DNA from: Sphingobacteriales bacterium | GTDB taxonomy: Bacteria > Bacteroidota > Bacteroidia > Chitinophagales > CAIOSU01 | NCBI GenBank assembly: GCA_027483645.1 | Contig: JAIXUD010000010.1 | Coordinates: 1-64,000 of the forward strand | DNA length: 64,000 bases | Direction: 5' to 3' | Shown here: positions 4,617 through 53,721 of the stretch, piece by piece | How the letters are laid out: every line of letters begins with the position of its first letter | Position numbering within the stretch: position 1 is the first letter of the stretch | Notes under the pieces: model-generated | The model's input: the letters and a program-made list of their open reading frames with translations, nothing else | Told to the model about the DNA's origin: nothing | The model's database searches: none | Position numbers and translations under genes: made by a program

Positions 4617-7600
4617 ATGGCTCAATCGCAAAATGCTCAGGAACGGATTAACTTTGGCCGAATAACCAAACACTCCGATTACCCTGATTTGCTGGAGATC
4701 CAATTGAAATCGTTTAAGGACTTTTTCCAATTGGAAACTACAGCCGAAAACAGGAAGGAAGAAGGACTATATAATGTATTCCAAGAAAACTTCCCCATCA
4801 GCGACGCCCGGAACATTTTCGTTCTGGAGTTCTTAGACTACTTTATCGACCCTCCGCGCTACACCATGGAGGAATGTATTGATAGGGGGTTGACCTATGC
4901 ATTGCCGCTCAAAGCCAAATTGCGCCTGTCGTGTAACGATGAGGAGCACGTCGATTTTGAGACTATTGTACAAGACGTATTTCTTGGCAACATTCCATAC
5001 ATGACCCCTAAGGGTACGTTTATTGTAAACGGCGCTGAGAGGATTATTGTATCTCAATTGCACCGTTCACCTGGTGTGTTTTTTGGCCAAAGCTTTCACC
5101 CGAACGGAACCAAGATTTATTCCGCACGGGTAATCCCGTTTAAGGGAGCTTGGATGGAGTTTGCCACCGATATCAATAACGTGATGTATGCGTACATTGA
5201 CCGTAAGAAGAAATTCCCGGTTACCACGTTGCTGCGCGCTATCGGTTTCGATAATGATAAAGACATCCTGCAATTGTTTGGCCTAGCCGATGAGCTGAAG
5301 CTGAACAAGAAAAACGTAGCATCGTTGGTAGGCCGCAAGCTTGCCGCAAGGGTGTTGCGTAGCTGGGTTGAGGATTTTGTGGATGAGGATACCGGTGAGG
5401 TGGTTTCTATCGAGCGTAACGAAGTTATTCTTGAGCGCGATACCATCCTTAACGAGGACAACATCCGCCAGGTAATGGATATGGACATCGACACTGTTAT
5501 TCTTCAGAAAGAAGAGATGAGTGCAGATTACTCCATTATCTACAACACGTTGCAAAAAGATACTTCTAACTCTGAGTTGGAAGCCGTGCAACATATCTAC
5601 CGCCAATTACGTGGTAGCGATCCACCGGATGACGAGACCGCGCGTGGCATTATCGAGAAGTTGTTCTTCAGCGATAAACGTTACGATTTGGGCGAAGTTG
5701 GCCGCTACAAAATCAACAAGAAGCTATTGCTGAATACCTCTGATGAGACCAAGGTTCTAACGAAGCAGGATATCATCGAGATTGTTAAGTACCTAGTTCG
5801 CTTGATTAACAGCAAAGCCGAGGTGGATGATATTGACCACTTGAGCAACCGCCGTGTACGTACCGTTGGCGAGCAGTTGTTTGCCCAGTTCGGTGTTGGT
5901 TTGGCCCGTATGGCGCGTACCATCCGCGAACGTATGAACGTGCGTGATAATGAGGTGTTTACCCCAATCGATTTGATCAACGCGAGGACTTTGTCTTCAG
6001 TTATCAACTCGTTCTTCGGTACCAGCCAGTTGTCACAGTTCTTGGATCAAACCAATCCGCTATCGGAAATCACCCACAAGCGTCGTATATCGGCCCTAGG
6101 GCCAGGCGGTTTGAGCCGTGAGCGTGCAGGCTTCGAAGTAAGGGACGTACACTATAGCCACTACGGTCGCTTGTGTACCATCGAAACTCCGGAAGGCCCG
6201 AACATCGGTTTGATAAGCACCCTTTGCGTACACGCTAAAGTGAACCGCATGGGCTTTATCGAAACTCCTTACCGCCCGGTAACGAACGGTATTGTTGATG
6301 TTGATGGTAGCCGTTATTTGTCAGCGGAAGAGGAGGATACCAACGTTATCGCACAGGCAAACGCCATAATCGATAAAAAAGGTAACTTCCTAAGCGACCG
6401 TATTAAGAGCCGTCACCATGGTGACTTCCCTATATCTACCGCCACTGAGCTTCAGTTCATGGATATTTCCCCTAACCAAATTGTGGGTGTATCTGCTTCC
6501 TTGATTCCTTTCTTGGAGAATGATGATGCAAACAGGGCTTTGATGGGATCGAACATGCAACGCCAGGCAGTGCCGTTGTTGGTGCCACAAGCACCTATCG
6601 TGGGTACTGGTTTGGAGAAAGTTGTAGCTACCGACTCTCGCTTGCTACTGAACGCCGAGCGCGCTGGTGTGGTGGAGTATGTAGATGCCGATACCATTAT
6701 CGTGAAATATGACTCAACCCCTGAGGAGGATTTGTTGAGCTTTGTGAGCAGTACCAAAACGTACAACCTTACCAAGTTTAAGAAAACCAACCAAGGTACC
6801 TGTATCAACTTGAAACCTATTGTTCGTAAAGGACAGGCGGTTAAGTTTGGCCAGTTGCTTTGCGAAGGATATGCTACTGATAATGGCGAGTTGGCCCTTG
6901 GCCGTAACTTGAAAGTGGCGTTCATGCCATGGAAAGGTTACAACTTCGAGGATGCTATCGTACTTTCGGAGCGTGTGGTAAAAGAGGACATCTTTACTTC
7001 GGTGCATATTGAAGAGTATGAGCTGGAAGTGCGTGATACCAAGCTTGGCGAAGAGGAACTGACTCCAGATATCCCTAACGTAAGCGAAGACGCAACCAAA
7101 GACCTTGATGAGCACGGTATTATCCGTATCGGTGCCCACATTAAGGAAGGCGATATCCTTATCGGTAAAATTACCCCTAAGGGCGAAACCGACCCAACAC
7201 CTGAGGAGAAGCTTTTGAGAGCTATCTTCGGTGACAAGGCCGGCGACGTAAAAGACGCAAGCTTGAAAGCACCTCCGAGCACCAAAGGCGTAGTTATCGA
7301 CAAGAAACTATTTGCCCGTGCCAAGAAGGACAAAACAGCTAAAACCCGTGAAAAGGTACAGTTGGATAAGCTGGAAGGCGAGCACAAGAAAGCTAAAGAA
7401 GCGGTAATTGATACCCTTGTTGACAAACTTTCGAAAGTGCTTAAGGATAAATCTTCTGCAGGCGTGATAAACGTTTATAAAGAGGAAGTGGTGCCTAAAG
7501 GCGTGAAATACAGCCAAAAACTGTTGAAAGACCTTGATTACGATAACATCGACTTCAACAACTGGACGAAGGACGAAGATGTGAATAGCGACGTTAAAGC

Positions 7601-23588: not shown

Positions 23589-25055
23589 ATGACCCAACCC
23601 CAAAACCTCGGCCAATTAAAAGCCTCCGGATATACCCCTAAAAGCATCAAACAAGAAATACGCGATAACCTGGTGGCGCGCATGAAGGCCAGCAAGCCCA
23701 TGTTTGCCGGCATTTTGGGTTACGACCAAACCGTGATACCTGATGTGCAGCGCGCCATCCTCTCTCGCCACAACATGATATTGCTGGGCCTGCGCGGGCA
23801 AGCGAAAACGCGCATAGCCCGCCTAATGGTGGACCTTTTGGACGAGTGGGTGCCCGTACTGGAAGGTAGCGAACTGAACGAAGACCCACTGCTGCCCATC
23901 ACCAAGCAGAGCTATGATAAAATAGCCGAACTAGGCGACAAAACCCCCATCACCTGGCTGCACCGCAACGATAGGTATGCCGAAAAACTGGCCACACCCG
24001 ATGTATCGGTAGCGGATTTGATTGGCGATGTGGACCCAATTAAGGCGGCCAACCTGCGCTTGAGCTATGCCGACGAAAGGGTGATACACTTCGGCTTGGT
24101 ACCGCGCAGCAACCGTTGCATCTTTGTTATCAACGAGTTGCCCGATTTGCAAGCACGTATACAAGTATCGCTGTTCAATATTTTGCAAGAGGGCGATGTA
24201 CAGATACGCGGTTTCAAACTGCGCCTGCCGCTGGATATCCAGTTTGTATTTACCGCCAACCCCGAGGATTACACCAATCGTGGTTCGATTGTAACGCCGC
24301 TAAAAGACCGTATTCAAAGCCAGATATTGACCCACTACCCTAAGGATATTGAAATATCAAAGTCCATTACCTTGCAAGAAGCCGCCATTACCAAAGAGCA
24401 GAAGGCAACGGTAGGGTATAGCGATTTGGCTCTGACCATGAACGAACAGATTGCCGTTGAAGCTCGTGGCAGTGAGTTTGTGGATGCGAAGAGTGGCGTA
24501 AGCGCCCGCTTGACTATCTCTGCTTTCGAAAACCTGTTTAGTGCTGCCGAGCGCCGCGCCATCATTAATGGGGAGGATAAAACCTTCATCCGCATGGGCG
24601 ACTTCTGGGGTATCATCCCCGCCATTACGGGTAAGATAGAGTTGGTTTATGAAGGTGAGCAAGAGGGCCCATACATAGTAGCACAAAACCTTTTGGGCAA
24701 ATCCATCCGTACGCTGTTTGCCCAGCTCTTCCCGAATCCGGAGAAGTTGCGCAAAAAGAAGGATGCCAACCCATACCAAGAAATCATTGATTGGTTCAAC
24801 ATTAATTCGCTCGACATCCTCAACGAGGTAAAGGACAAGGACTACGCCCACCGCCTATTGGCCGTGGACGGTTTGGACGACCTCGTTAAAAAATATCACC
24901 CAGCGCTAAAAGGCCCCGAGAAGCTATTTTACATGGAGTTTGTGCTGCACGGCCTAGCCGAATATAGCCTCCTCAACAAGCACCAACTAGAAACCGGCGT
25001 GCGGTTTAAAGATTTGCTAGGGGCAATGTTTGATATGAGCGGGGGTGAAAACTAG
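23589..25055 (+). CDS. AAA+ ATPase, Mg-chelatase ChlI-like / sigma-54-interaction-domain-like
   Basis: 488 aa; degenerate Walker A (LGLRGQAKT) and Walker B (CIFVINELPD). The family assignment is by resemblance only. Confidence 0.45.
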   Translation: MTQPQNLGQLKASGYTPKSIKQEIRDNLVARMKASKPMFAGILGYDQTVIPDVQRAILSRHNMILLGLRGQAKTRIARLMVDLLDEWVPVLEGSELNEDPLLPITKQSYDKIAELGDKTPITWLHRNDRYAEKLATPDVSVADLIGDVDPIKAANLRLSYADERVIHFGLVPRSNRCIFVINELPDLQARIQVSLFNILQEGDVQIRGFKLRLPLDIQFVFTANPEDYTNRGSIVTPLKDRIQSQILTHYPKDIEISKSITLQEAAITKEQKATVGYSDLALTMNEQIAVEARGSEFVDAKSGVSARLTISAFENLFSAAERRAIINGEDKTFIRMGDFWGIIPAITGKIELVYEGEQEGPYIVAQNLLGKSIRTLFAQLFPNPEKLRKKKDANPYQEIIDWFNINSLDILNEVKDKDYAHRLLAVDGLDDLVKKYHPALKGPEKLFYMEFVLHGLAEYSLLNKHQLETGVRFKDLLGAMFDMSGGEN

Positions 25056-25066
25056 ACACAAGATTT

Positions 25067-25117
25067 GAGACACAAGACACAACACTTTTTTTGCAGCTAT
25101 CTTGTGTCTTGTGTCTC
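25067..25117. terminator. Bidirectional hairpin between convergent genes (GACACAAGACAC repeat family)
   Basis: gagacacaagacacaa ... ttgtgtcttgtgtctc form a perfect 16-bp stem; the right arm overlaps the WYL-gene stop codon. Confidence 0.6.
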
Positions 25118-26123
25118 AACCCTGATACTGCTCCAGCGCCTTCATTAGCCGGTATTTAATAGACCGCGCCAAACGCGAAGGCTTCAACACCTTTACATTA
25201 TCACCAAAGCCCAGTATCTCGCGCTCGAGCTCAAAGTTGTGTTTTACCTGGATGCAGATGGTAGTGCCTGCTTCGGTTTTCGCTACAATTTCTTGGGTGG
25301 GGTGTATCGGTTTGGTGAGTACGTAGGGTGCATGGGCTGGATCAACAAGCAGGTGTACTTCCAGCACGTCGCTGCGGCTATCAGTTACCCCAATTAAATG
25401 CTTAAAATAGGTTTGCGTATCGAATAGCTCGTTCTCCATATAAGGCACAGAAGCTTTTTCTATCCCCTGTATACGGTCAAGCGCTAGGTTGAGCAGTTGA
25501 TTTCGGTGGTTGGGTGTGCCCAAAAGAAACCAGCGGTTGCGATACTGTTTTAATAGGTATGGGTGGAAAACAATATCGCCCGCCTGCCGCGCCTTGAAAC
25601 TTTGGTAAGTAATAGTAAGCGGTTGTTTATCGATAATAGCATGATACAGCACATCCAAGTGCTCCAACCCACGCAGGTCTTCGTTCTTTTCAAAATCGAT
25701 AACCGGTGTAGTGTGCGATTTGGAGGTATAAATCTGGTCTTCCAGCTTGCTCACCATCTCACTTACTCCGTTAAAGTGCGAAAAGCCTTTAAACTGTTTC
25801 AGTATATCCACCACACCATTCAGCATACCCAGGTCTTGGTCGGTAAGCGGTATGTTGCTTATGCTGTAATCGGGGTCTTCGTAAGTGTAATACTTCTTGT
25901 CGACTACAATAATAGGCGCTTTGTAGCCCAGCTTTTCGCTGCGCATCATCTGTATATCCATCTGCACGCTGCGGCGGCTGATGCCTTTATCAATTCCTTC
26001 GTACTCGTACAAGGTATCGCTACAGGCATCTATCAAATCCTCCAAAGTCCACTTACGGTAACGGTTTTGCAGGCATTTATCAATGGTTCGGTATCGGATG
26101 AGCGCATTCCTATTTACAGGCAT
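25116..26123 (-). CDS. WYL-domain transcriptional regulator (wHTH + WYL)
   Basis: N-terminus MPVNRNALIRYRTIDKCLQNRYRKWTLEDLIDACSD is the characteristic HTH of WYL regulators; about 335 aa. Start placed at the internal Met because the 40-aa upstream extension is non-conserved. Confidence 0.7.
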   Translation of the reverse strand: MPVNRNALIRYRTIDKCLQNRYRKWTLEDLIDACSDTLYEYEGIDKGISRRSVQMDIQMMRSEKLGYKAPIIVVDKKYYTYEDPDYSISNIPLTDQDLGMLNGVVDILKQFKGFSHFNGVSEMVSKLEDQIYTSKSHTTPVIDFEKNEDLRGLEHLDVLYHAIIDKQPLTITYQSFKARQAGDIVFHPYLLKQYRNRWFLLGTPNHRNQLLNLALDRIQGIEKASVPYMENELFDTQTYFKHLIGVTDSRSDVLEVHLLVDPAHAPYVLTKPIHPTQEIVAKTEAGTTICIQVKHNFELEREILGFGDNVKVLKPSRLARSIKYRLMKALEQYQG

Positions 26124-26159
26124 TTCAAACTTTTTTTGAAAAATAGTAAAAATATTTTT

Positions 26160-26198
26160 CACTGCGCAAAAAGACTGCGCACTAGCATGTAAACTTTG
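26160..26198 (+). promoter_or_regulatory. Operator-promoter motif copy 1 (ACTGCGCA-N6-CTGCGCA-N11-ACTTTG)
   Basis: cACTGCGCAaaaagaCTGCGCActagcatgtaaACTTTG; same architecture as copies 2 and 3. ACTTTG fits the Bacteroidetes -7 TAnnTTTG element. Confidence 0.6.
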
Positions 26199-26226
26199 CA
26201 TCGTTAATAAGAAAAAACACATCGTT

Positions 26227-26373
26227 ATGTCATCATTTATCAAACATCAGTTGGACGGTAATAAGAAGCAGCAAGGTAACTTGGGTATAGCCTATATAGG
26301 CAGCCTCGGCATGCCGGGACTGCGCCCCGACCAAAGCAGTGAGACAAAACGAGATTGTAGCCGGAAGGTATAG
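26227..26373 (+). CDS. Small ORF (48 aa) or sRNA driven by motif copy 1
   Basis: ATG 29 nt after TTTG with an A-rich leader; ORF MSSFIKHQLDGNKKQQGNLGIAYIGSLGMPGLRPDQSSETKRDCSRKV; followed by a strong terminator. Coding status is uncertain. Confidence 0.3.
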   Translation: MSSFIKHQLDGNKKQQGNLGIAYIGSLGMPGLRPDQSSETKRDCSRKV

Positions 26374-26400
26374 CATCATAATTACACCGTAGTTATATGT

Positions 26401-26434
26401 AAGCCCTGGCCATCTCGCCGGGGCTTTTCTTTTG
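26401..26434 (+). terminator. Rho-independent terminator (plus strand)
   Basis: aagccctggc-catctc-gccggggctt 10-bp stem, then ttcttttg. Confidence 0.75.
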
Positions 26435-26479
26435 CATGAGATTTTGCAATCTCAAGTCCCACACAAGTTTTATTCAACC

Positions 26480-26589
26480 GTATTCGTAGCTCAAGTGTTA
26501 GAGCCACCCACTTTTAATGGGTGAGTTATAGGTTCGAACGGCGAAGCCCTCACTGAGCTTTTTGCGAAGTAGTCCTATCGGGTACACCA
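26480..26589 (+). ncRNA. tRNA-like gene (Lys-like, anticodon TTT) with a 34-nt insertion in the T-loop and an encoded CCA
   Basis: Acceptor gtattcg/cgggtac (two G-U pairs), D-arm gctc-aagtgtta-gagc, anticodon arm accca-cttttaa-tgggt, T-stem atagg...cctat. The T-loop reads ttcgaac and is followed by the insert ggcgaagccctcactgagctttttgcgaagtagt. The 3' end is ACCA. Confidence 0.55.
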
Positions 26590-26674
26590 ATATGGGCATT
26601 GCCTTAGGGTGGGCTATGCCCAAGCTACCCGCCATCGGCTTTAGCGTGCCGATGGCGGTGGCACCAAGAATTAA

Positions 26675-26746
26675 CTGGAGGGATAACGGTGGTTGTTTAC
26701 TCGCTTTGGAAGCGAGTGGTCGCAGGTTCAAATCCTGCCCTCCAGA
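26675..26746 (+). tRNA. tRNA-Pro (anticodon TGG)
   Basis: C1-G72 acceptor ctggagg/cctccag, anticodon arm ctcgc-tttggaa-gcgag, T-arm gcagg-ttcaaat-cctgc. Confidence 0.75.
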
Positions 26747-26924
26747 CAAAAACTCCTAACCAACAAGTTGAGGAGGAAAGAGCTTGCTTGTGGCACCACT
26801 GGCGCTAGTGGTTGGTGGTGTGCAAACGGGAGTGGTTGAAGCCCACGGTTCCGACACTAAGCAGGAACAACGTTCGAAAAAGCCCATTTGACGGCCAACG
26901 GGCAAGCTCTTTCAAAGCATAACA

Positions 26925-26996
26925 GGAACCGTAGTTCAGCGGTAGAATCCCCGACTGTCTATCGGGTGGTCACGGGTTCGAATCCCGTCGGTTCCG
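26925..26996 (+). tRNA. tRNA-Asp (anticodon GTC)
   Basis: ggaaccg/cggttcc acceptor, anticodon arm cccga-ctgtcta-tcggg, T-arm acggg-ttcgaat-cccgt. Confidence 0.85.
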
Positions 26997-27000
26997 CTTT

Positions 27001-27096
27001 AGGCCTGTAGCCCAACGGCAGAGGCACCAGATTTAGGATCTGGACAGTGTGGGTTCGAACGGCGAAGCCCTCGTGCCAACACTCCCACCAGGCCCA
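27001..27096 (+). ncRNA. tRNA-like gene (anticodon TAG, class-I shape) with a 23-nt T-loop insertion
   Basis: Acceptor aggcctg/caggccc, anticodon arm ccaga-tttagga-tctgg, 5-nt variable loop, T-stem gtggg...cccac. The T-loop ttcgaac is followed by the insert ggcgaagccctcgtgccaacact, sharing its first 12 nt with the 26480 element. Confidence 0.55.
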
Positions 27097-27104
27097 CAAA
27101 TTAT

Positions 27105-27177
27105 TGGATGGTAGTTCAATTGGAAAGAGCATCGGGCTACGAACCCGAAGATGCAGGTTCGACTCCTGCCCATCCAA
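27105..27177 (+). tRNA. tRNA-Arg (anticodon ACG)
   Basis: Acceptor tggatgg/ccatcca, D-arm gttc-aattggaaa-gagc, anticodon arm tcggg-ctacgaa-cccga, T-arm gcagg-ttcgact-cctgc. Confidence 0.8.
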
Positions 27178-27188
27178 CTAACAAAAAG

Positions 27189-27403
27189 GGCGTCATTGCG
27201 AAGGCCTACTAGGTCTTGCAGTTCGAGCTAAACTTTAATGGCCTGAAGCAATCCCCCGACGAGGGGAGTGAATCGCATAGACCACTAAAGTGATGGTATT
27301 ATGTACTTGGTTCTGCGGTAAGCACAAACTATGCTCCGTAGCAGGGGATTGCTTCGTCGTTCAATTGCGCGAAAGGCGCAAATTGACTCCTCGCAATGAC
27401 GGC
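27189..27403 (+). ncRNA. Unclassified highly structured RNA candidate (about 215 nt) embedded in the tRNA array
   Basis: Closing helix gcgtcattgcgaagg / cctcgcaatgacggc. Nested helices gaagcaatcccc / ggggattgcttc and gcatag / ctatgc. Hairpins tcccccgacgagggga and ttgcgc-gaaag-gcgcaa. Confidence 0.45.
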
Positions 27404-27427
27404 TAGGGATTGGAGGTGATGTTAAAT

Positions 27428-27499
27428 TGTCTGGTGGTCTAATGGTTAGGATACTTCGTTTTGGAAGAAGTGGTGGTGGTTCGAATCCATCCCGGACAA
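27428..27499 (+). tRNA. tRNA-Gln (anticodon TTG)
   Basis: U1-A72 acceptor tgtctgg/ccggaca, anticodon loop ttTTGga, T-arm ggtgg-ttcgaat-ccatc, 4-nt variable loop. Confidence 0.7.
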
Positions 27500-27539
27500 C
27501 AAAAAATGAAAAAGTTGAAAATAAATTTTACTGCGCAAC

Positions 27540-27577
27540 AACGCTGCGCACCAGCGTTTCAACTTTGACATATTGTT
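27540..27577 (+). promoter_or_regulatory. Operator-promoter motif copy 2
   Basis: tACTGCGCAacaacgCTGCGCAccagcgtttcaACTTTG; spacing identical to copies 1 and 3. Confidence 0.6.
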
Positions 27578-27590
27578 ATTTGAAATCAAT

Positions 27591-27790
27591 ACTCCTCTAG
27601 CTTAAAAGGAAGAGCTGTGGTAAAAGTTACGGAACCATGTAGTGCCGGGATGATGCCTATAGAATCTCGCATTTTATAGGCTAGAATTTGCAGATGCACC
27701 GAAACACCGCTCTATAGAAGTGTAGTAGGGAAGCGCATTTATAGCCCGGCTGCCCTCGCGGGAGTCTCGGTTCGAGTCCGGGGAGGAGTG
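27591..27790 (+). ncRNA. 200-nt tRNA-like RNA with acceptor stem and canonical T-arm but about 150 nt replacing the anticodon region
   Basis: 5' actcctc pairs with 3' gaggagt. T-arm ctcgg-ttcgagt-ccggg sits directly before the 3' acceptor strand, and an agct...agct D-like stem follows the 5' strand. Internal helices include gcctata/tataggc and gccggg/cccggc. Begins about 15 nt after motif copy 2. Confidence 0.45.
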
Positions 27791-27796
27791 CGATTA

Positions 27797-27867
27797 GCAC
27801 CAGTAGCTTAATGGCAAAGCCCCTGTTTACCAAACAGGCAACGCAGGTTCGATTCCTGCTTGGTGCT
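27797..27867 (+). tRNA. tRNA with atypical anticodon ACC (Gly-like), 4-nt variable loop
   Basis: Acceptor gcaccag/ttggtgc, D-arm gctt-aatggca-aagc, anticodon arm cctgt-ttACCaa-acagg, T-arm gcagg-ttcgatt-cctgc. An A34 anticodon is unusual in bacteria outside Arg. Confidence 0.55.
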
Positions 27868-28005
27868 CAGTTAATGGTCGATTTGTGTAAGACCTGATCA
27901 GGGTTTCAAAATGGCCCGGTAGTGTTGCCACGCCCTGCGTTGCAATATGCTGCTTATCATTTTGGCATTAACTACCATGCTGTTTTTTGAAACAGTTTTG
28001 GAAGC

Positions 28006-28082
28006 GTGGGTTCGAATCCCACCATGCGTACACGCATGTGGCTCAGTGGTTAGAGCATGTTTTGGGCTCATAATCCAAACAT
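28006..28082 (+). ncRNA. Permuted-looking Met-like tRNA element: 3' half (T-arm + acceptor 3' strand) immediately upstream of the 5' half (acceptor 5' strand, D-arm, CAT anticodon arm)
   Basis: The 3' half gtggg-ttcgaat-cccac-catgcgt-a is followed 1 nt later by the 5' half acgcatg-tg-gctc-agtggtta-gagc. The anticodon stem is extended (atgttt/aaacat plus ggg/tcc) with loop CTCATAA, the Met/initiator-type loop. The two acceptor strands are exact complements. Confidence 0.4.
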
Positions 28083-28470
28083 TTCCCAAAAGTTGATCAC
28101 TTGTAAAAATGATCGCAGGAAAGTAGCGGCGGTGTCCTGGCCTTGCCATTATGGTTCGCCATAAAACCCAGGCAGTTGGACAGCGACCTGAAAAAGGAGG
28201 ATACCGTTGCAACAAGTTCGTTGGCTTTGCCCGGTAAAGGGATTTCTATAAATCGAGTATCAAAAGGGCCTCGAATTAACGAAACACCCACTGTGCAAAC
28301 CCGGCAAACACGTTCAGCTCAATCCGGCTTCCATTGTTGGAAGATGGGGCATCGGCGCTGCTTTCTATTTTTTTTGAAACGTATTTGAAAACCCGAAACG
28401 TGTAAGTCCCTCTCCCCTTGGGAGAGGCTAGGTGAGGGTTGAATTATAACAAGCATTAAAACACACAATT

Positions 28471-29574
28471 ATGTTCAACACAAGAATCAACGAAGGAACA
28501 GTAGGTATCGTTACCAAGTACGGCAACTATAACAGGATAGTATCGGCAGGTACTTTCTGGGCAATGTTCAATGAGCAGGTGGAAACCTACAACGTGGATA
28601 CGCTGTATGGCGCTTTCCCTAAGCTCGACATTATGCTGAAAGACGAGCGTTTCCGCGCCATGGTAGAAGTACTGGAAGTAAAGGATAACGAGATTGCCTT
28701 GCAGTTTGTAAACGGCAACTTTGTGAGCATACTGAAGCCAGGTCGGTACTTCTACTTTAAAGGCTACGCCAACATCAAGTTTGTGGTGGTAAACCTGGGC
28801 AAGGTAGAGATTACCGAAGGCATCGATATGGCGGTACTGTTAAGGTCGGAGGTGGCGCACTATATCCGCGCCTTCTCGGTGCTGCCTTACGAGGAAGGCC
28901 TGCTGTTTGTGGATGGTAAATTCCAAAGGAAGCTGACCAAGGGTACCTACTACTTCTGGAAGAACCCCATCACCATTGAGGTGTTGAAGGCGGATATGAG
29001 GCAGTTGCAAATGGAAATCTCCGGTCAGGAAATCTTGACCATGGATAAAGCCGCACTGCGTGTAAACTTCTATGCCCAATACCGAGTGGTGGATACCGAA
29101 GTGGCCTTGCTGAACAACAAAGACTTCGAGAAGCAATTGTACATACTGGTGCAGTTGGCCTTGAGGGAATTTGTGGGCACCAAAACCCTGGATGAGTTGC
29201 TGGAAAACAAAGACTCCGTGGGCCAGTTTGTAGCCGATGCGCTGAAAGGCAAAGCGGCCAAGCTGGGCGTAGAGATTGTGAACAGCGGCATCAGGGACGT
29301 GATACTGCCAGGTGAAGTGAAGGAGATTATGAACCAAGTATTGGTGGCCCAAAAACAGGCCCAGGCCAACACCATTACCCGTAGGGAGGAGACAGCTTCT
29401 ACTAGGAGCTTGTTGAACACCGCCAAACTGATGGAGGACAACGAAATGTTGTTCAAACTGAAGGAGATGGAGTACGTGGAGAAAATCGCTGCGAAAATAG
29501 GTGAGATTACCGTATCGGGCAATGGCCAGGTGTTGGACCAGTTGAGGGACATTTTTTCGGCGAAATCAAAATAA
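28471..29574 (+). CDS. SPFH/Band-7 (stomatin-prohibitin-like) domain protein
   Basis: 367 aa with an SPFH-like core and a C-terminal coiled region; the family call is from overall resemblance. Confidence 0.6.
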   Translation: MFNTRINEGTVGIVTKYGNYNRIVSAGTFWAMFNEQVETYNVDTLYGAFPKLDIMLKDERFRAMVEVLEVKDNEIALQFVNGNFVSILKPGRYFYFKGYANIKFVVVNLGKVEITEGIDMAVLLRSEVAHYIRAFSVLPYEEGLLFVDGKFQRKLTKGTYYFWKNPITIEVLKADMRQLQMEISGQEILTMDKAALRVNFYAQYRVVDTEVALLNNKDFEKQLYILVQLALREFVGTKTLDELLENKDSVGQFVADALKGKAAKLGVEIVNSGIRDVILPGEVKEIMNQVLVAQKQAQANTITRREETASTRSLLNTAKLMEDNEMLFKLKEMEYVEKIAAKIGEITVSGNGQVLDQLRDIFSAKSK

Positions 29575-29589
29575 TTAAACAAAAGTTTG

Positions 29590-29627
29590 CACTGCGCAAC
29601 AACACTGCGCAGTGCATCTTTTACTTT
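29590..29627 (+). promoter_or_regulatory. Operator-promoter motif copy 3 (immediately upstream of rtcB)
   Basis: cACTGCGCAacaacaCTGCGCAgtgcatcttttACTTTG; the rtcB ATG is 23 nt downstream of TTTG. Confidence 0.65.
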
Positions 29628-29643
29628 GTATTGTCAATGATAA

Positions 29644-31032
<1,389 letters not shown>

Positions 31033-51990: not shown

Positions 51991-52107
51991 GGCATCAGGT
52001 TTTATATAGCGGGGCAAAGTATGTGCCATCACTTTAATCGGTACAAAGGCATTACTTATTATCTTTCTGCTTATTATTGCCTTCTCGAATATTTTAACAA
52101 TAAACCT

Positions 52108-53721
52108 ATGCCCATTTCTAAGAAGTGGTACTTATTAGCTTTTTTGCTGGTAGCGTATTTTTTGGTAGCGCTTTACCCCATTTTGCTCAGCGGTTTTTAT
52201 TCTGATGATATCCTGTTTATGCAGGGTACTAGGGGTAAAATTATATATGATAACACCAGTTTGTGCGAGTTGGTGGTGGAGGATACTAATGCGTGGATGG
52301 CCAATGCACGGTTTGCCCCGCTATTTTATCTAGAAATGCGATCCGTATTTTATTTCATTAGTGATGTGTTAAGCTACAAAGCTTACATCTTGGTTTTAAA
52401 CTTGGTGGCTGTTTTTTCTTTTGCTTATTTTCTATACACACTCAATAAAGACAGAAAATTCTTAATAATAGCACTCTTGGTGCTACCAGCGTTCTTTCAG
52501 TTTAGGGTAATGAGCCATGATGCATACACCACTTTCGGCGGATTGTATCAAGGTATTGCCATACTCAATTTCCTGGCTTTATCCCTATTTGTTTTGTACC
52601 TCCAAAAAGAAAGAGGCTATTATCTATTTGCCTCAATGGGCATGTTACTAGCGGCGTTTTGTTTCTCAGAAATGACGCTGATTTTTATACCGGTCTATTT
52701 GGTTGTGGCACTTTGGTTAAACAAGTCGACCGAAACCAAGTTGCTATACCTATCCAAAAAACTGGCTTCGGTAGCTTTAATTACCGGAATCTACCTTGCA
52801 TTAGTCATAGGCTTAAGGGCAAGTCAACCACCTGATTTTTACCAATACCCTGGCTTACGCACCTCTTTTAATGGCTCAAAAATGATGCGACTCTTCCATG
52901 GGCAGCTTATTTCGGCTATACCTATGAGCTACATTAATTATGAGAAGAATTTTTTAAAGGTTGAGCCAAAAATTATTTTCGGCCAAATATGGCTATACCT
53001 ACCCATAGGCTTGGCTATATTGCTCATGATAGTGTTTTTGCTAGTTTTCCAACAATATTGGGGAATACCAAAACTTGATGGACTTACACATAGCAAATGG
53101 TTGATTATTATTGGGCTACTGCTCTTGTTGTTACCCGGTGCACTTATAATGCCATCGGATAAGTATCAAAGAATGGTATTGCCTGGTAACGGATACCTAC
53201 CGGTATACCTTCAAAATTTCGGCGGTGCCATGCTTTTTTCATTATTGATGCACTGGCTGTTAGGTGCTGCTAGTAGGTTGAAAAATTACCTAGGTATTGG
53301 TATGGTTGTGCTGTTTTTGCTGATTGTGCCGCTCACTTTTGCCAACAATGTACGCTTGGTGACCAAGCAGAATTTCACAGCCCATAATCCTAGCTTAGCG
53401 TTGGAGAAGGCCCTTACCGATGGTTTGTTAAAAGCGGTACAGCGAAGGAATGTAATATGGCTGGCCAACAATCACCATTGGGGTGGTACCGACTACTATA
53501 AGTATTTATTTACCGAAAAGGCAAATAAGCGGGTTACGGTGGTAAACTCTTTACAACCAGCTGATTTCGACCCTGCTAACCAGCCTGTGTTTTACTTGTC
53601 TTTTCCTGCTGGCAACCCGAATATAGTAAGCTTGAAACGAGTTATTGCTATTGATGAAGATGGTTTGCCCCAAGTAGATGATAGCGAGCGGGATAGGGTT
53701 TTTAGCTATGATTTGGAGTGA
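52108..53721 (+). CDS. Polytopic membrane protein, putative glycosyltransferase (ArnT/PMT/YfhO-like)
   Basis: More than 10 TM helices, with the largest inter-helix loops near the N- and C-termini. No strict motif identified. Confidence 0.45.
   Translation: MPISKKWYLLAFLLVAYFLVALYPILLSGFYSDDILFMQGTRGKIIYDNTSLCELVVEDTNAWMANARFAPLFYLEMRSVFYFISDVLSYKAYILVLNLVAVFSFAYFLYTLNKDRKFLIIALLVLPAFFQFRVMSHDAYTTFGGLYQGIAILNFLALSLFVLYLQKERGYYLFASMGMLLAAFCFSEMTLIFIPVYLVVALWLNKSTETKLLYLSKKLASVALITGIYLALVIGLRASQPPDFYQYPGLRTSFNGSKMMRLFHGQLISAIPMSYINYEKNFLKVEPKIIFGQIWLYLPIGLAILLMIVFLLVFQQYWGIPKLDGLTHSKWLIIIGLLLLLLPGALIMPSDKYQRMVLPGNGYLPVYLQNFGGAMLFSLLMHWLLGAASRLKNYLGIGMVVLFLLIVPLTFANNVRLVTKQNFTAHNPSLALEKALTDGLLKAVQRRNVIWLANNHHWGGTDYYKYLFTEKANKRVTVVNSLQPADFDPANQPVFYLSFPAGNPNIVSLKRVIAIDEDGLPQVDDSERDRVFSYDLE

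Follow-up and report, generated by a model that had tools for sequence, protein, structure and literature searches.

Transfer RNA (tRNA) arrays and the islands around the RNA ligase gene rtcB are widespread, mobile and induced by translational stress; in Anabaena, the tRNA L-arrays are co-regulated with rtcB under such stress (PMC8421152). The non-tRNA RNAs known from these arrays and islands so far are transfer-messenger RNA (tmRNA), YrlA and GOLLD, the last of which resides in tRNA arrays and prophages (PMC12286853, PMC6582537). Here we analyze a tRNA-shaped RNA gene of 200 nucleotides (nt), which we read from the sequence at positions 27591-27790 of the forward strand (+) in a 64,000-nt stretch from a Sphingobacteriales bacterium (contig JAIXUD010000010.1, positions 1 to 64,000; the whole stretch is referred to as the window). 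Comparison with related sequences points to a conserved class of tRNA-mimic noncoding RNAs of RNA-repair/tRNA-array islands, apparently undescribed and structurally distinct, a fourth beside the three known ones. We found no description of the family in the literature searched on Y RNAs, tRNA arrays, RNA repair and GOLLD, though one may exist. On balance, we lean toward the reading that the RNA is a non-decoding tRNA mimic of stress-induced tRNA-array/RtcB islands, in which an inserted domain locks the anticodon-like loop.

The RNA carries the whole body of a tRNA, namely, a 7-bp acceptor stem, a D arm with G18 and G19, and a T arm made of a 5-bp stem and a UUCRA loop; these parts are canonically spaced and their helices all covary. 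What is absent is a 5-bp anticodon stem with a 7-nt loop and U33; instead, the stem has 4 bp and its loop is predicted to pair elsewhere. ARAGORN makes no call at 27591-27790, and the Rfam tRNA model gives no match there at E values up to 10. Because a regular D arm and a short anticodon-like stem are both present, the expansion sits in the variable region, as an insertion of ∼120 nt that follows the anticodon-like arm and precedes the T arm. The parts of the gene are as follows.

27591-27597 (+): acceptor stem, 5' strand ACUCCUC; pairs with 27783-27789, with compensatory changes in 7/7 pairs and 99.4% of cells paired.
27600-27615 (+): D arm, GCUU / AAAAGGAA / GAGC with G18 and G19; 99.5% paired, with A14, A15 and GG nearly invariant.
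27617-27638 (+): anticodon-like arm, a 4-bp stem GUGG/CCAU (27617-27620 / 27635-27638) with a 14-nt loop; 96.6% paired.
27621-27626 (+): 5' strand of the predicted pseudoknot, UAAAAG, bases 1 to 6 of the anticodon-like loop; complementary to 27736-27741.
27644-27649 (+): helix V1, 5' strand GCCGGG, the start of the inserted domain; pairs with 27745-27750, with compensatory changes in 4/6 pairs and 98.5% paired.
27655-27681 (+): hairpin V2, variable in sequence; compensatory changes in 10/10 pairs.
27682-27698 (+): conserved junction strand UAGAAUUUGCAGAUGCA, nearly invariant in the subgroup alignment.
27687-27689 (+): U97 to U99, candidate third strand of a predicted triple helix; UUU becomes UUC or CUC where A-U pairs of the pseudoknot become G-C.
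27699-27729 (+): CC-GAAA...AGUA-GG module with the variable hairpin V3 (27705-27723); the CC/GG pairs and flanks are invariant (these bases are partly fixed by the pattern of our metagenome search and are also intact in every member found by BLAST only), and the V3 stem covaries.
27730-27741 (+): conserved strand GAAGCG, then the pseudoknot 3' strand CAUUUA (27736-27741), as judged from alignment and pairing analysis.
27745-27750 (+): helix V1, 3' strand CCCGGC, assigned by covariation.
27753-27762 (+): hairpin V4, CCC-UCGC-GGG, at the place of an ordinary long variable arm; compensatory changes in 3/3 pairs.
27766-27782 (+): T arm, CUCGG / UUCGAGU / CCGGG, abutting the acceptor 3' strand; 100% of cells paired, with compensatory changes in 4/5 pairs.
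27783-27790 (+): acceptor 3' strand GAGGAGU (27783-27789) and discriminator G27790; CCA is not encoded.

The first-pass annotation of this DNA had described the acceptor helix (actcctc/gaggagt) and the canonical T arm at its tRNA position just as we find them, and every pair of the former covaries. It had also placed a structured core of ∼150 nt where the anticodon and variable region would be: the core is structured indeed, but nothing is replaced, since an anticodon-like arm is present and the variable region carries the insertion. A tertiary contact of a tRNA also seems to be retained. U27765 (U175), directly 5' of the T arm, is invariant in subgroup A (the window type; see below) and is the likely Levitt partner of A15 (the 15:48 pair), while some members of subgroup C have G15 together with a C before the T stem; from these A15/U and G15/C combinations, the Levitt pair is probably preserved. 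With its AGUA/GAA consensus, the CC-GAAA...AGUA-GG module resembles a loop-E (bulged-G) motif that has two closing G-C pairs.

Whether this RNA is real was decided by homology and covariation; folding energy was not used as evidence because the folding of the single sequence is not significant (minimum free energy [MFE] of -64 kcal/mol; z = -1.29). We compared loci from 80 Bacteroidota genomes, mostly Flavobacteriaceae, which had been chosen by RtcB relatives at 68 to 72% identity. BLAST with the 200 nt gave full-length homologues in five of them (L022, L025, L028, L046 and L047), one copy cut at a contig end (L032) and one decayed copy (L062). Long tRNA arrays of up to 20 genes, of the L-array kind, stand beside rtcB in about half of the 80 loci, and where full-length copies occur, the tRNA-shaped RNA has the same strand as the array. 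Two conserved core motifs, sought in metagenome contigs, yielded at least 120 loci. Five viral contigs matched a broader motif; the Flavobacterial-specific motif had no match in viral contigs. Over all loci, at least 115 elements have paired acceptor ends, of which at least 95 are unique and at least 70 are representatives at 92% identity or less.

RNAalifold, applied to 44 subgroup-A sequences, predicts nine helices (acceptor, D, anticodon-like, V1, V2, the two-pair CC/GG, V3, V4 and T), and compensatory changes occur in 36 of the 48 predicted pairs. In these sequences, 96.7% of cells are paired versus 74.1% with shuffled partners and 34 to 46% with slid partners, and 521 cells show a double change versus 163 after shuffling, a value that none of 500 shuffles reaches. 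The same comparison for 64 sequences across the subgroups, in an alignment that was fitted to the model and hence leans toward the structure, gives 92.8% paired cells (67.8% shuffled, 32 to 48% slid) and 812 double-change cells (236 shuffled; 0/500 shuffles reach the observed count). Covariation had been set beforehand as a check on which the first-pass proposal would stand or fall, and the helices covary strongly in relatives; together with the homologues, this bears out the earlier view of a discrete structured RNA with partial tRNA mimicry.

The family, whose members are ∼180 to 230 nt long, falls into three subgroups. Among the matches listed, subgroup A, to which the window copy belongs, has 45 representatives from Flavobacteriaceae genomes and metagenomes (∼195 to 205 nt, V4 present, CCA unencoded); subgroup B has 13 from soil, with high GC content (213 to 227 nt, most with G3:U70, A73 and an encoded CCA); and subgroup C has 12 from rumen and phage-like arrays (∼180 nt, V4 hairpin absent). 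The nearest relative of the window copy shares 77% identity with it, and a profile of 43 subgroup-A relatives, from which the window sequence was excluded, matches 27593-27787 with an E value of 5e-46. Scores from the covariance model are 191 bits for the window, 67 to 91 for subgroup C, 46 to 58 for subgroup B and at most 25 for ordinary tRNAs. Representatives of all three subgroups had no BLAST match among GenBank phages and PLSDB plasmids. No family of Rfam 15 covers 27591-27790, either at the gathering threshold or at E values up to 10; thus, the searches with Y RNA, tmRNA and tRNA models that the first-pass annotation had called for came back empty. The discriminator of the 45 subgroup-A representatives is A in 35, G in 8 and U in 2; the base after it is always C and CCA is never encoded, a pattern also seen in the neighboring array tRNAs. 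The window copy itself has U3:A70 and G73 and lacks CCA, and subgroup A as a whole has U3:A70 or C3:G70.

The anticodon-like loop is the part that most sets this RNA apart in our reading. It has 14 nt in the window and from 12 to ∼75 nt among relatives, in none of which it forms a 7-nt anticodon loop. Despite this variation in length, the loop begins with UAAAAG in nearly all members, and this sequence is complementary to the six bases directly after the conserved AGUAGGGAAGCG. Variants on the two sides match each other: UAAAUG/CAUUUA, UAAAGG/CUUUUA, GAAAAG with CAUUUC or CUUUUC, CAAAAG/CAUUUG and UAAACG/CGUUUA, along with UAAAAC/GUUUUA in subgroup C and, in soil lineages, UAAGUG/CACUUA (L149) and UGAGUG/CACUCA (L081 and L101). 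Matched variants thus occur at 6/6 positions, and the mean pairing per sequence is 5.11 of 6 versus 4.74 ± 0.05 with shuffled partners, with none of 1,000 shuffles reaching the observed value. We therefore consider it likely that the loop bases pair with the strand of the inserted domain as a pseudoknot; because loop and insert covary, we take them to function together. Across the internal loop lies a U-tract that reads UUU almost everywhere, UUC in L149 and CUC in L081 and L101. Read in parallel orientation, these changes fall where the purine strand goes from A to G, which would fit U.A-U and C+.G-C major-groove triples and thereby a clamp on the loop like that of an ENE, a U-rich element that stabilizes RNA. 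We rate this triple helix as suggestive only, because its support comes from two related lineages.

The RNA gene lies within a noncoding cluster of 2.2 kb (26250-28470) in which ARAGORN finds five ordinary tRNAs, namely, Pro-UGG, Asp-GUC, Arg-ACG, Gln-UUG and Gly-ACC, which may be noted as extra copies of the array type. The tRNA genes around the RNA are spaced by 5 to 10 nt. The next one, tRNA-Gly with the unusual anticodon ACC, occupies 27797-27868 (+), 7 nt past the tRNA-shaped RNA. The elements that frame the cluster are listed below.

23589-25055: AAA_5 ATPase gene, near the gene for a WYL-WCX regulator.
25116-26243: gene for the WYL-WCX regulator, divergent from the cluster.
27509-27567 (+): putative operator/promoter copy 2, a 59-nt repeat with two ACTGCGCA boxes and an ACTTTG end.
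28471-29574: SPFH/Band-7 gene, downstream of the cluster.
29650-31032: rtcB, after the SPFH/Band-7 gene and 1.9 kb downstream of the tRNA-shaped RNA.

The 59-nt direct repeat, D1, has three copies (26140-26198, 27509-27567 and 29570-29628), each with two ACTGCGCA boxes and the ACTTTG end. Copy 1 heads the RNA cluster, copy 2 ends 24 nt before the tRNA-shaped RNA and copy 3 precedes rtcB; a D1-like sequence is also found just upstream of rtcB in L013 and L021. From this arrangement, we infer that the D1 copies are the operator/promoter of a small regulon, comprising the RNA cluster, the tRNA-shaped RNA and rtcB, under the control of the WYL-WCX protein. Copy 2 would probably be both a site for this regulator and the start of a transcription unit with the tRNA-shaped RNA as its first gene. 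A scan for σ70 promoters was uninformative (3 sites found versus 2.8 expected). The first-pass annotation had put the RNA directly after operator-promoter copy 2 and beside rtcB, and both placements hold, with the SPFH gene standing between the cluster and rtcB. Among the matches listed, tRNA calls accompany the element in all metagenome loci (one or more per locus; median, 4), and the neighboring proteins in these loci include RtcB in 20, SPFH in 20, WYL-WCX in 17 and the RlaP nucleotidyltransferase in 6.

The window belongs to a bacterial chromosome, and its first 12.8 kb carry tuf, tRNA-Trp, secE-nusG-rplKAJL and rpoBC. Several of its proteins have sorting domains of the type IX secretion system, which points to Bacteroidota. 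A 566-amino-acid open reading frame (ORF) at 52021-53721 (+), in a stretch of lower GC content (0.41), has no Pfam match at E values up to 1e-4.

The cluster holds other unusual RNA genes. Two tRNA-like genes at 26480-26590 and 27001-27097 (+) have the anticodon loops CUUUUAA and UUUAGGA, respectively, and share the 21-nt sequence GGTTCGAACGGCGAAGCCCTC (26531-26551 and 27052-27072), which starts in the T loop. Judged from its position, GGTTCGAACGGCGAAGCCCTC is a repeated insertion after UUCGAA; it was not found elsewhere in the compared loci. Between tRNA-Arg and tRNA-Gln, the 233 nt at 27186-27418 (+) adopt a predicted multibranched fold closed by an 11-bp helix (MFE of -88.2 kcal/mol, z = -4.33, with 0/200 shuffles as stable); this segment has neither an Rfam match nor a homologue in the compared loci. 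Upstream of rtcB in Flavobacteriaceae, we noted further tRNA-like genes (L057:7754-7894, L034:9675-9831 and L056:6780-6892) with normal acceptor, D and T arms and with insertions of 40 to 80 nt in or after the anticodon arm; these belong to different families.

We propose the following mechanism for the RNA. It would be transcribed with the stress-inducible RtcB regulon, its ends would be cut by RNase P and RNase Z as in a tRNA, and CCA would then be added. The pairing of loop and insert, along with the U-tract triples, would extend the anticodon stem into a rigid clamped helix, which would expose two things at the "anticodon" end: the purine-rich junction, which is invariant, and the hairpin with the loop-E motif. 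In what we regard as the least certain step, the RNA would work as a non-decoding tRNA mimic, like YrlA or the tRNA-like domain of tmRNA. The tRNA half would serve processing, stability and docking to tRNA-binding machinery, and the locked extra domain would be the functional surface. The target of this surface would be some broadly conserved component, of either translation or RNA repair, bound during the tRNA or ribosome damage that RtcB repairs.

Several observations weigh against this reading. No co-occurring protein is common to all contexts of the element. Because the search pattern demanded GCACCGAAA and AGUAGGGAAGCGC, their lack of variation in the metagenome set was built in, and the unbiased sample for this feature consists of the seven BLAST members. 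The central pairs of the pseudoknot are invariant A-U, an A.A mismatch is present in most subgroup-A pseudoknots, and the helix is paired in 75.8% of cells when counted in a fixed register. Gap placement and, in subgroup C, a register shifted by 1 nt detract from this count, and the per-sequence analysis is more informative. As for the triple helix, the two related lineages behind it are L149 and L081 with L101, all from soil. A discrete species of ∼200 nt is predicted solely from the tRNA-like ends. Finally, the acceptor stem of subgroup A varies freely at every pair, and this variation, with that of the discriminator, argues against recognition by a specific aminoacyl-tRNA synthetase; because of it, we think it more likely that the RNA serves as a scaffold or for docking than that a specific synthetase charges it.

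A more far-reaching proposal would make the family a hitherto unrecognized class of RNAs of the translation apparatus, a standard accessory of horizontally transferred tRNA arrays beside tmRNA, YrlA and GOLLD. Its members would have a CCA tail, which alanine would charge at least in the G3:U70 subgroup, and an intramolecular "codon-anticodon-like" triplex clamp in place of the anticodon end. As cofactors of rescue or repair that lack a tag, they would act directly on RtcB substrates or on ribosomes that are damaged or stalled. We regard this as unlikely.

Four other explanations deserve consideration. The RNA could be aminoacylated and serve in ribosome rescue, as a minimal tmRNA relative or one without a tag, entering stalled ribosomes through its acceptor and T half. 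Subgroup B does combine G3:U70, A73 and an encoded CCA, the alanine identity set used by tmRNA (for example, GGGGAAG...CUUCUCCACCA and, in L081, GGGGCUG...CAGCUCCACCA), and because of this set aminoacylation of subgroup B is possible; moreover, in arrays from rumen and of phage-like type, the spacers of permuted two-piece tmRNA genes hold the element, and the L122 copy has a weak partial match to an Rfam tmRNA model. However, in the subgroup of the window the third pair is U3:A70 or C3:G70 and the discriminator varies, as do the pairs 1:72 and 2:71, the full D stem and the anticodon-like arm are unlike tmRNA, ARAGORN calls no tmRNA at the locus, and no frame is conserved, as V3 varies out of frame in length and stop codons vary. 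The absence of a tmRNA-like tag ORF, noted in the first pass, therefore extends to the relatives, and we think a tmRNA relative quite unlikely. Alternatively, the RNA might be a Y RNA in the functional sense, i.e., a second RNA bound by Ro60/Rsr that partners the YrlA-like RNA found after it in the window and in L022, L046, L099, L115, L164 and L176. Two or more Y RNAs are usual in bacteria, and the conserved strand CACCGAAA, which would bind Ro, loosely resembles the Ro-contact motifs GNCGAA and GGUCCGA (PMC4201824). This match is imperfect and internal rather than near the 5' end, though, and the acceptor stem is open and the order unpermuted. Among the matches listed, tblastn and Pfam find true Ro60 (TROVE plus vWA_Ro60) only in L122 and L188, where its gene stands last in the tRNA array of the element; these are two loci of identical type of the ∼120 metagenome loci listed, against 0/80 genome loci. 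In the window, the earlier statement that a Ro60/Rsr gene is missing is upheld, as TROVE is absent from the ORFs scanned and tblastn with an Rsr protein is empty. Its YrlA-like label for the RNA itself has to be given up, given that no Rfam YrlA match falls inside 27591-27790 at E values up to 10. We consider a Ro-bound role decidedly unlikely.

A role as decoy, sponge or regulator, in which the RNA titrates an RNase toxin or anticodon nuclease or feeds back on the WYL-domain repressor, would suit the setting in RNA-repair/conflict islands and on some phage contigs as well as the operator copy that the gene has to itself; WYL domains are sensors of nucleic acids or ligands (PMC4012209), and tRNAs encoded in arrays have been proposed to act as sponges (PMC8421152). 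Yet the anticodon loop, the usual target of such nucleases, would be masked here, and many contexts, including phage-like arrays, lack WYL genes. Nor is the RNA a simple mimic of the sarcin-ricin loop, because its loop-E strands are arranged opposite to those of that loop. We hold this explanation to be quite unlikely too, to the same degree as a tmRNA relative. The presence 1.9 kb downstream of RtcB, the tRNA-splicing ligase of archaea and eukaryotes, together with the insertions seen in further tRNA-like genes of this cluster and of related loci, might suggest an interrupted tRNA gene, from which an intron or mobile insertion is removed and whose exons RtcB seals into a decoding tRNA. Removal of the insert, however, would leave a sequence-variable loop of 12 to 75 nt with neither U33 nor a 7-nt anticodon loop, the loop covaries with the insert, and no intron or ribozyme model of Rfam matches; such an origin is very improbable. 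We thus retain the non-decoding mimic with its locked loop as the preferred reading, and compare it below with the RNAs that it resembles.

Candidates suggested by eye or by low-scoring matches were examined and dropped. Hammerhead-like and hairpin-like motifs seen by eye are not conserved among relatives, so that a ribozyme reading was rejected, and Rfam models of hammerhead, twister, pistol, hatchet, hepatitis delta virus-like ribozymes and group I introns have no match at E values up to 10. Known group I introns, moreover, are longer than the insert of ∼120 nt. A match to the snoU30 model (18.8 bits, E = 4) was regarded as noise, and a resemblance of AGUAGGGAA and GGAAGC to 5S rRNA or the signal recognition particle RNA, seen by eye only, has no support from Rfam. 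A tag peptide read from GCA GAA GCA CCG AAA was likewise discarded, as its downstream frame, length and stop are not conserved; frames from GCA GAN GCA CCG AAA end differently, the strongly conserved AGUAGGGAAGCGC falls in more than one frame, and V3 has a length that 3 does not divide. Single-linkage clustering of neighboring ORFs had placed Ro60 in 17 loci; this was a chaining artefact, which tblastn and Pfam reduced to the two loci named above.

Class II tRNAs share with the tRNA-shaped RNA the cloverleaf, an extra hairpin (V4) before the T arm, and the gene flanks and spacing of the array. They differ in that the RNA has a further three-way domain between the anticodon-like arm and V4 and is missed by tRNA finders.

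The resemblance to YrlA (RF02553) lies in the build: both join a non-decoding copy of the D, T and acceptor arms of a tRNA to a second functional module, and both occur in RtcB/RNA-repair neighborhoods, often with tRNA genes. In YrlA, however, the order is permuted (V, T, closed acceptor hairpin, D), the ends form the Ro-binding stem, the length is ∼100 to 130 nt and the gene lies within ∼4 kb of rsr, on its strand. In contrast, the tRNA-shaped RNA has the normal tRNA order, open acceptor ends and ∼200 nt, its second module is the ∼120-nt variable-region domain that would be locked to the anticodon-like loop, and rsr is usually not nearby. The motif GNCGAAN0-1G near the 5' end (PMC4201824) is absent from it; only an internal CACCGAAA at positions 107 to 114 is found, with the motif-1 G and the trailing G missing. 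In L122, the YrlA-like match beside rsr (5372-5480) is separate from the family member at 2145-2358.

The YrlA-like elements are of interest in their own right. The one in the window occupies 27981-28085 (+), ∼200 nt downstream of the tRNA-shaped RNA, with a partial Rfam match at 28005-28056 (33.7 bits). Its order is V hairpin, T arm, closed 6-bp acceptor hairpin, D arm and a complete anticodon arm, whose 7-nt loop CUCAUAA has the anticodon CAU. Over the seven loci listed above with such an element, including the window, its distance from the tRNA-shaped RNA is 150 to 400 nt downstream, and the units of L022, L164 and L176 have closed acceptor stems of 6 or 7 bp and a UUU anticodon loop. A strict detector of permuted units finds them downstream of the element in 25/91 cases versus upstream in 8/93, among the matches listed. 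These units, which neighbor an RNA ligase gene, resemble tRNA genes in circularly permuted form.

With tmRNA (RF00023, RF04321), the family has in common a tRNA-like acceptor and T half around a large pseudoknotted insert, an occurrence in phage-type tRNA arrays and, in subgroup B only, G3:U70, A73 and CCA. It differs from tmRNA in lacking a conserved tag ORF, resume codon and stop, in being half the size, and in having a true D stem and an anticodon-like arm. Neither ARAGORN nor Rfam calls a tmRNA in the window, and the L122 relative obtains no more than a partial match of 16.6 bits. Separately, we observed permuted two-piece tmRNA genes (RF04321, 52 bits; ARAGORN tags such as GNDFVFAMAA) in L199 (7998-8352) and in L097, L160, L174 and L194, each with a subgroup-C copy in the spacer that separates its acceptor piece from its coding piece. 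A subgroup-C copy in such a spacer would act as a punctuation mark for processing.

GOLLD (RF02032) is likewise an ornate noncoding RNA of horizontally moving tRNA arrays and prophages, but the two are adjacent sequences without overlap or detectable similarity, and the window and most other loci lack GOLLD; its model has no match in window positions 26400-28600 at E values up to 10. Matches just below the Rfam gathering score (119 to 135 bits; E = 1e-30 to 1e-35) were seen in tRNA arrays of Flavobacteriaceae and of marine origin, at L028:6860-7337, L046:7293-7773 and L176:4576-5050. In L028 and L046, exactly 16 nt separate the end of the match from the tRNA-shaped RNA that follows; in L176, the match lies 395 nt downstream of this RNA.

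The predicted clamp, finally, can be likened to ENE and H-type triplex pseudoknots, such as those of the PAN and MALAT1 ENEs, telomerase RNA and the SAM-II and preQ1-II riboswitches, in which an A-rich strand lies between two U-rich strands at an internal loop between G-C-rich stems. In our model, the Hoogsteen contacts would come from the 5' U-tract and the Watson-Crick pairing from the 3' U-tract. Unlike in an ENE, the A-rich strand would be the hairpin loop of the same molecule within a tRNA scaffold, and the 3 to 4 layers are deduced from covariation in two lineages. A complete tRNA body whose anticodon loop is sequestered by such an ENE-like clamp would be unusual for a tRNA mimic, and the identity of its partner could reveal roles of RtcB-linked arrays beyond the supply of spare tRNAs.

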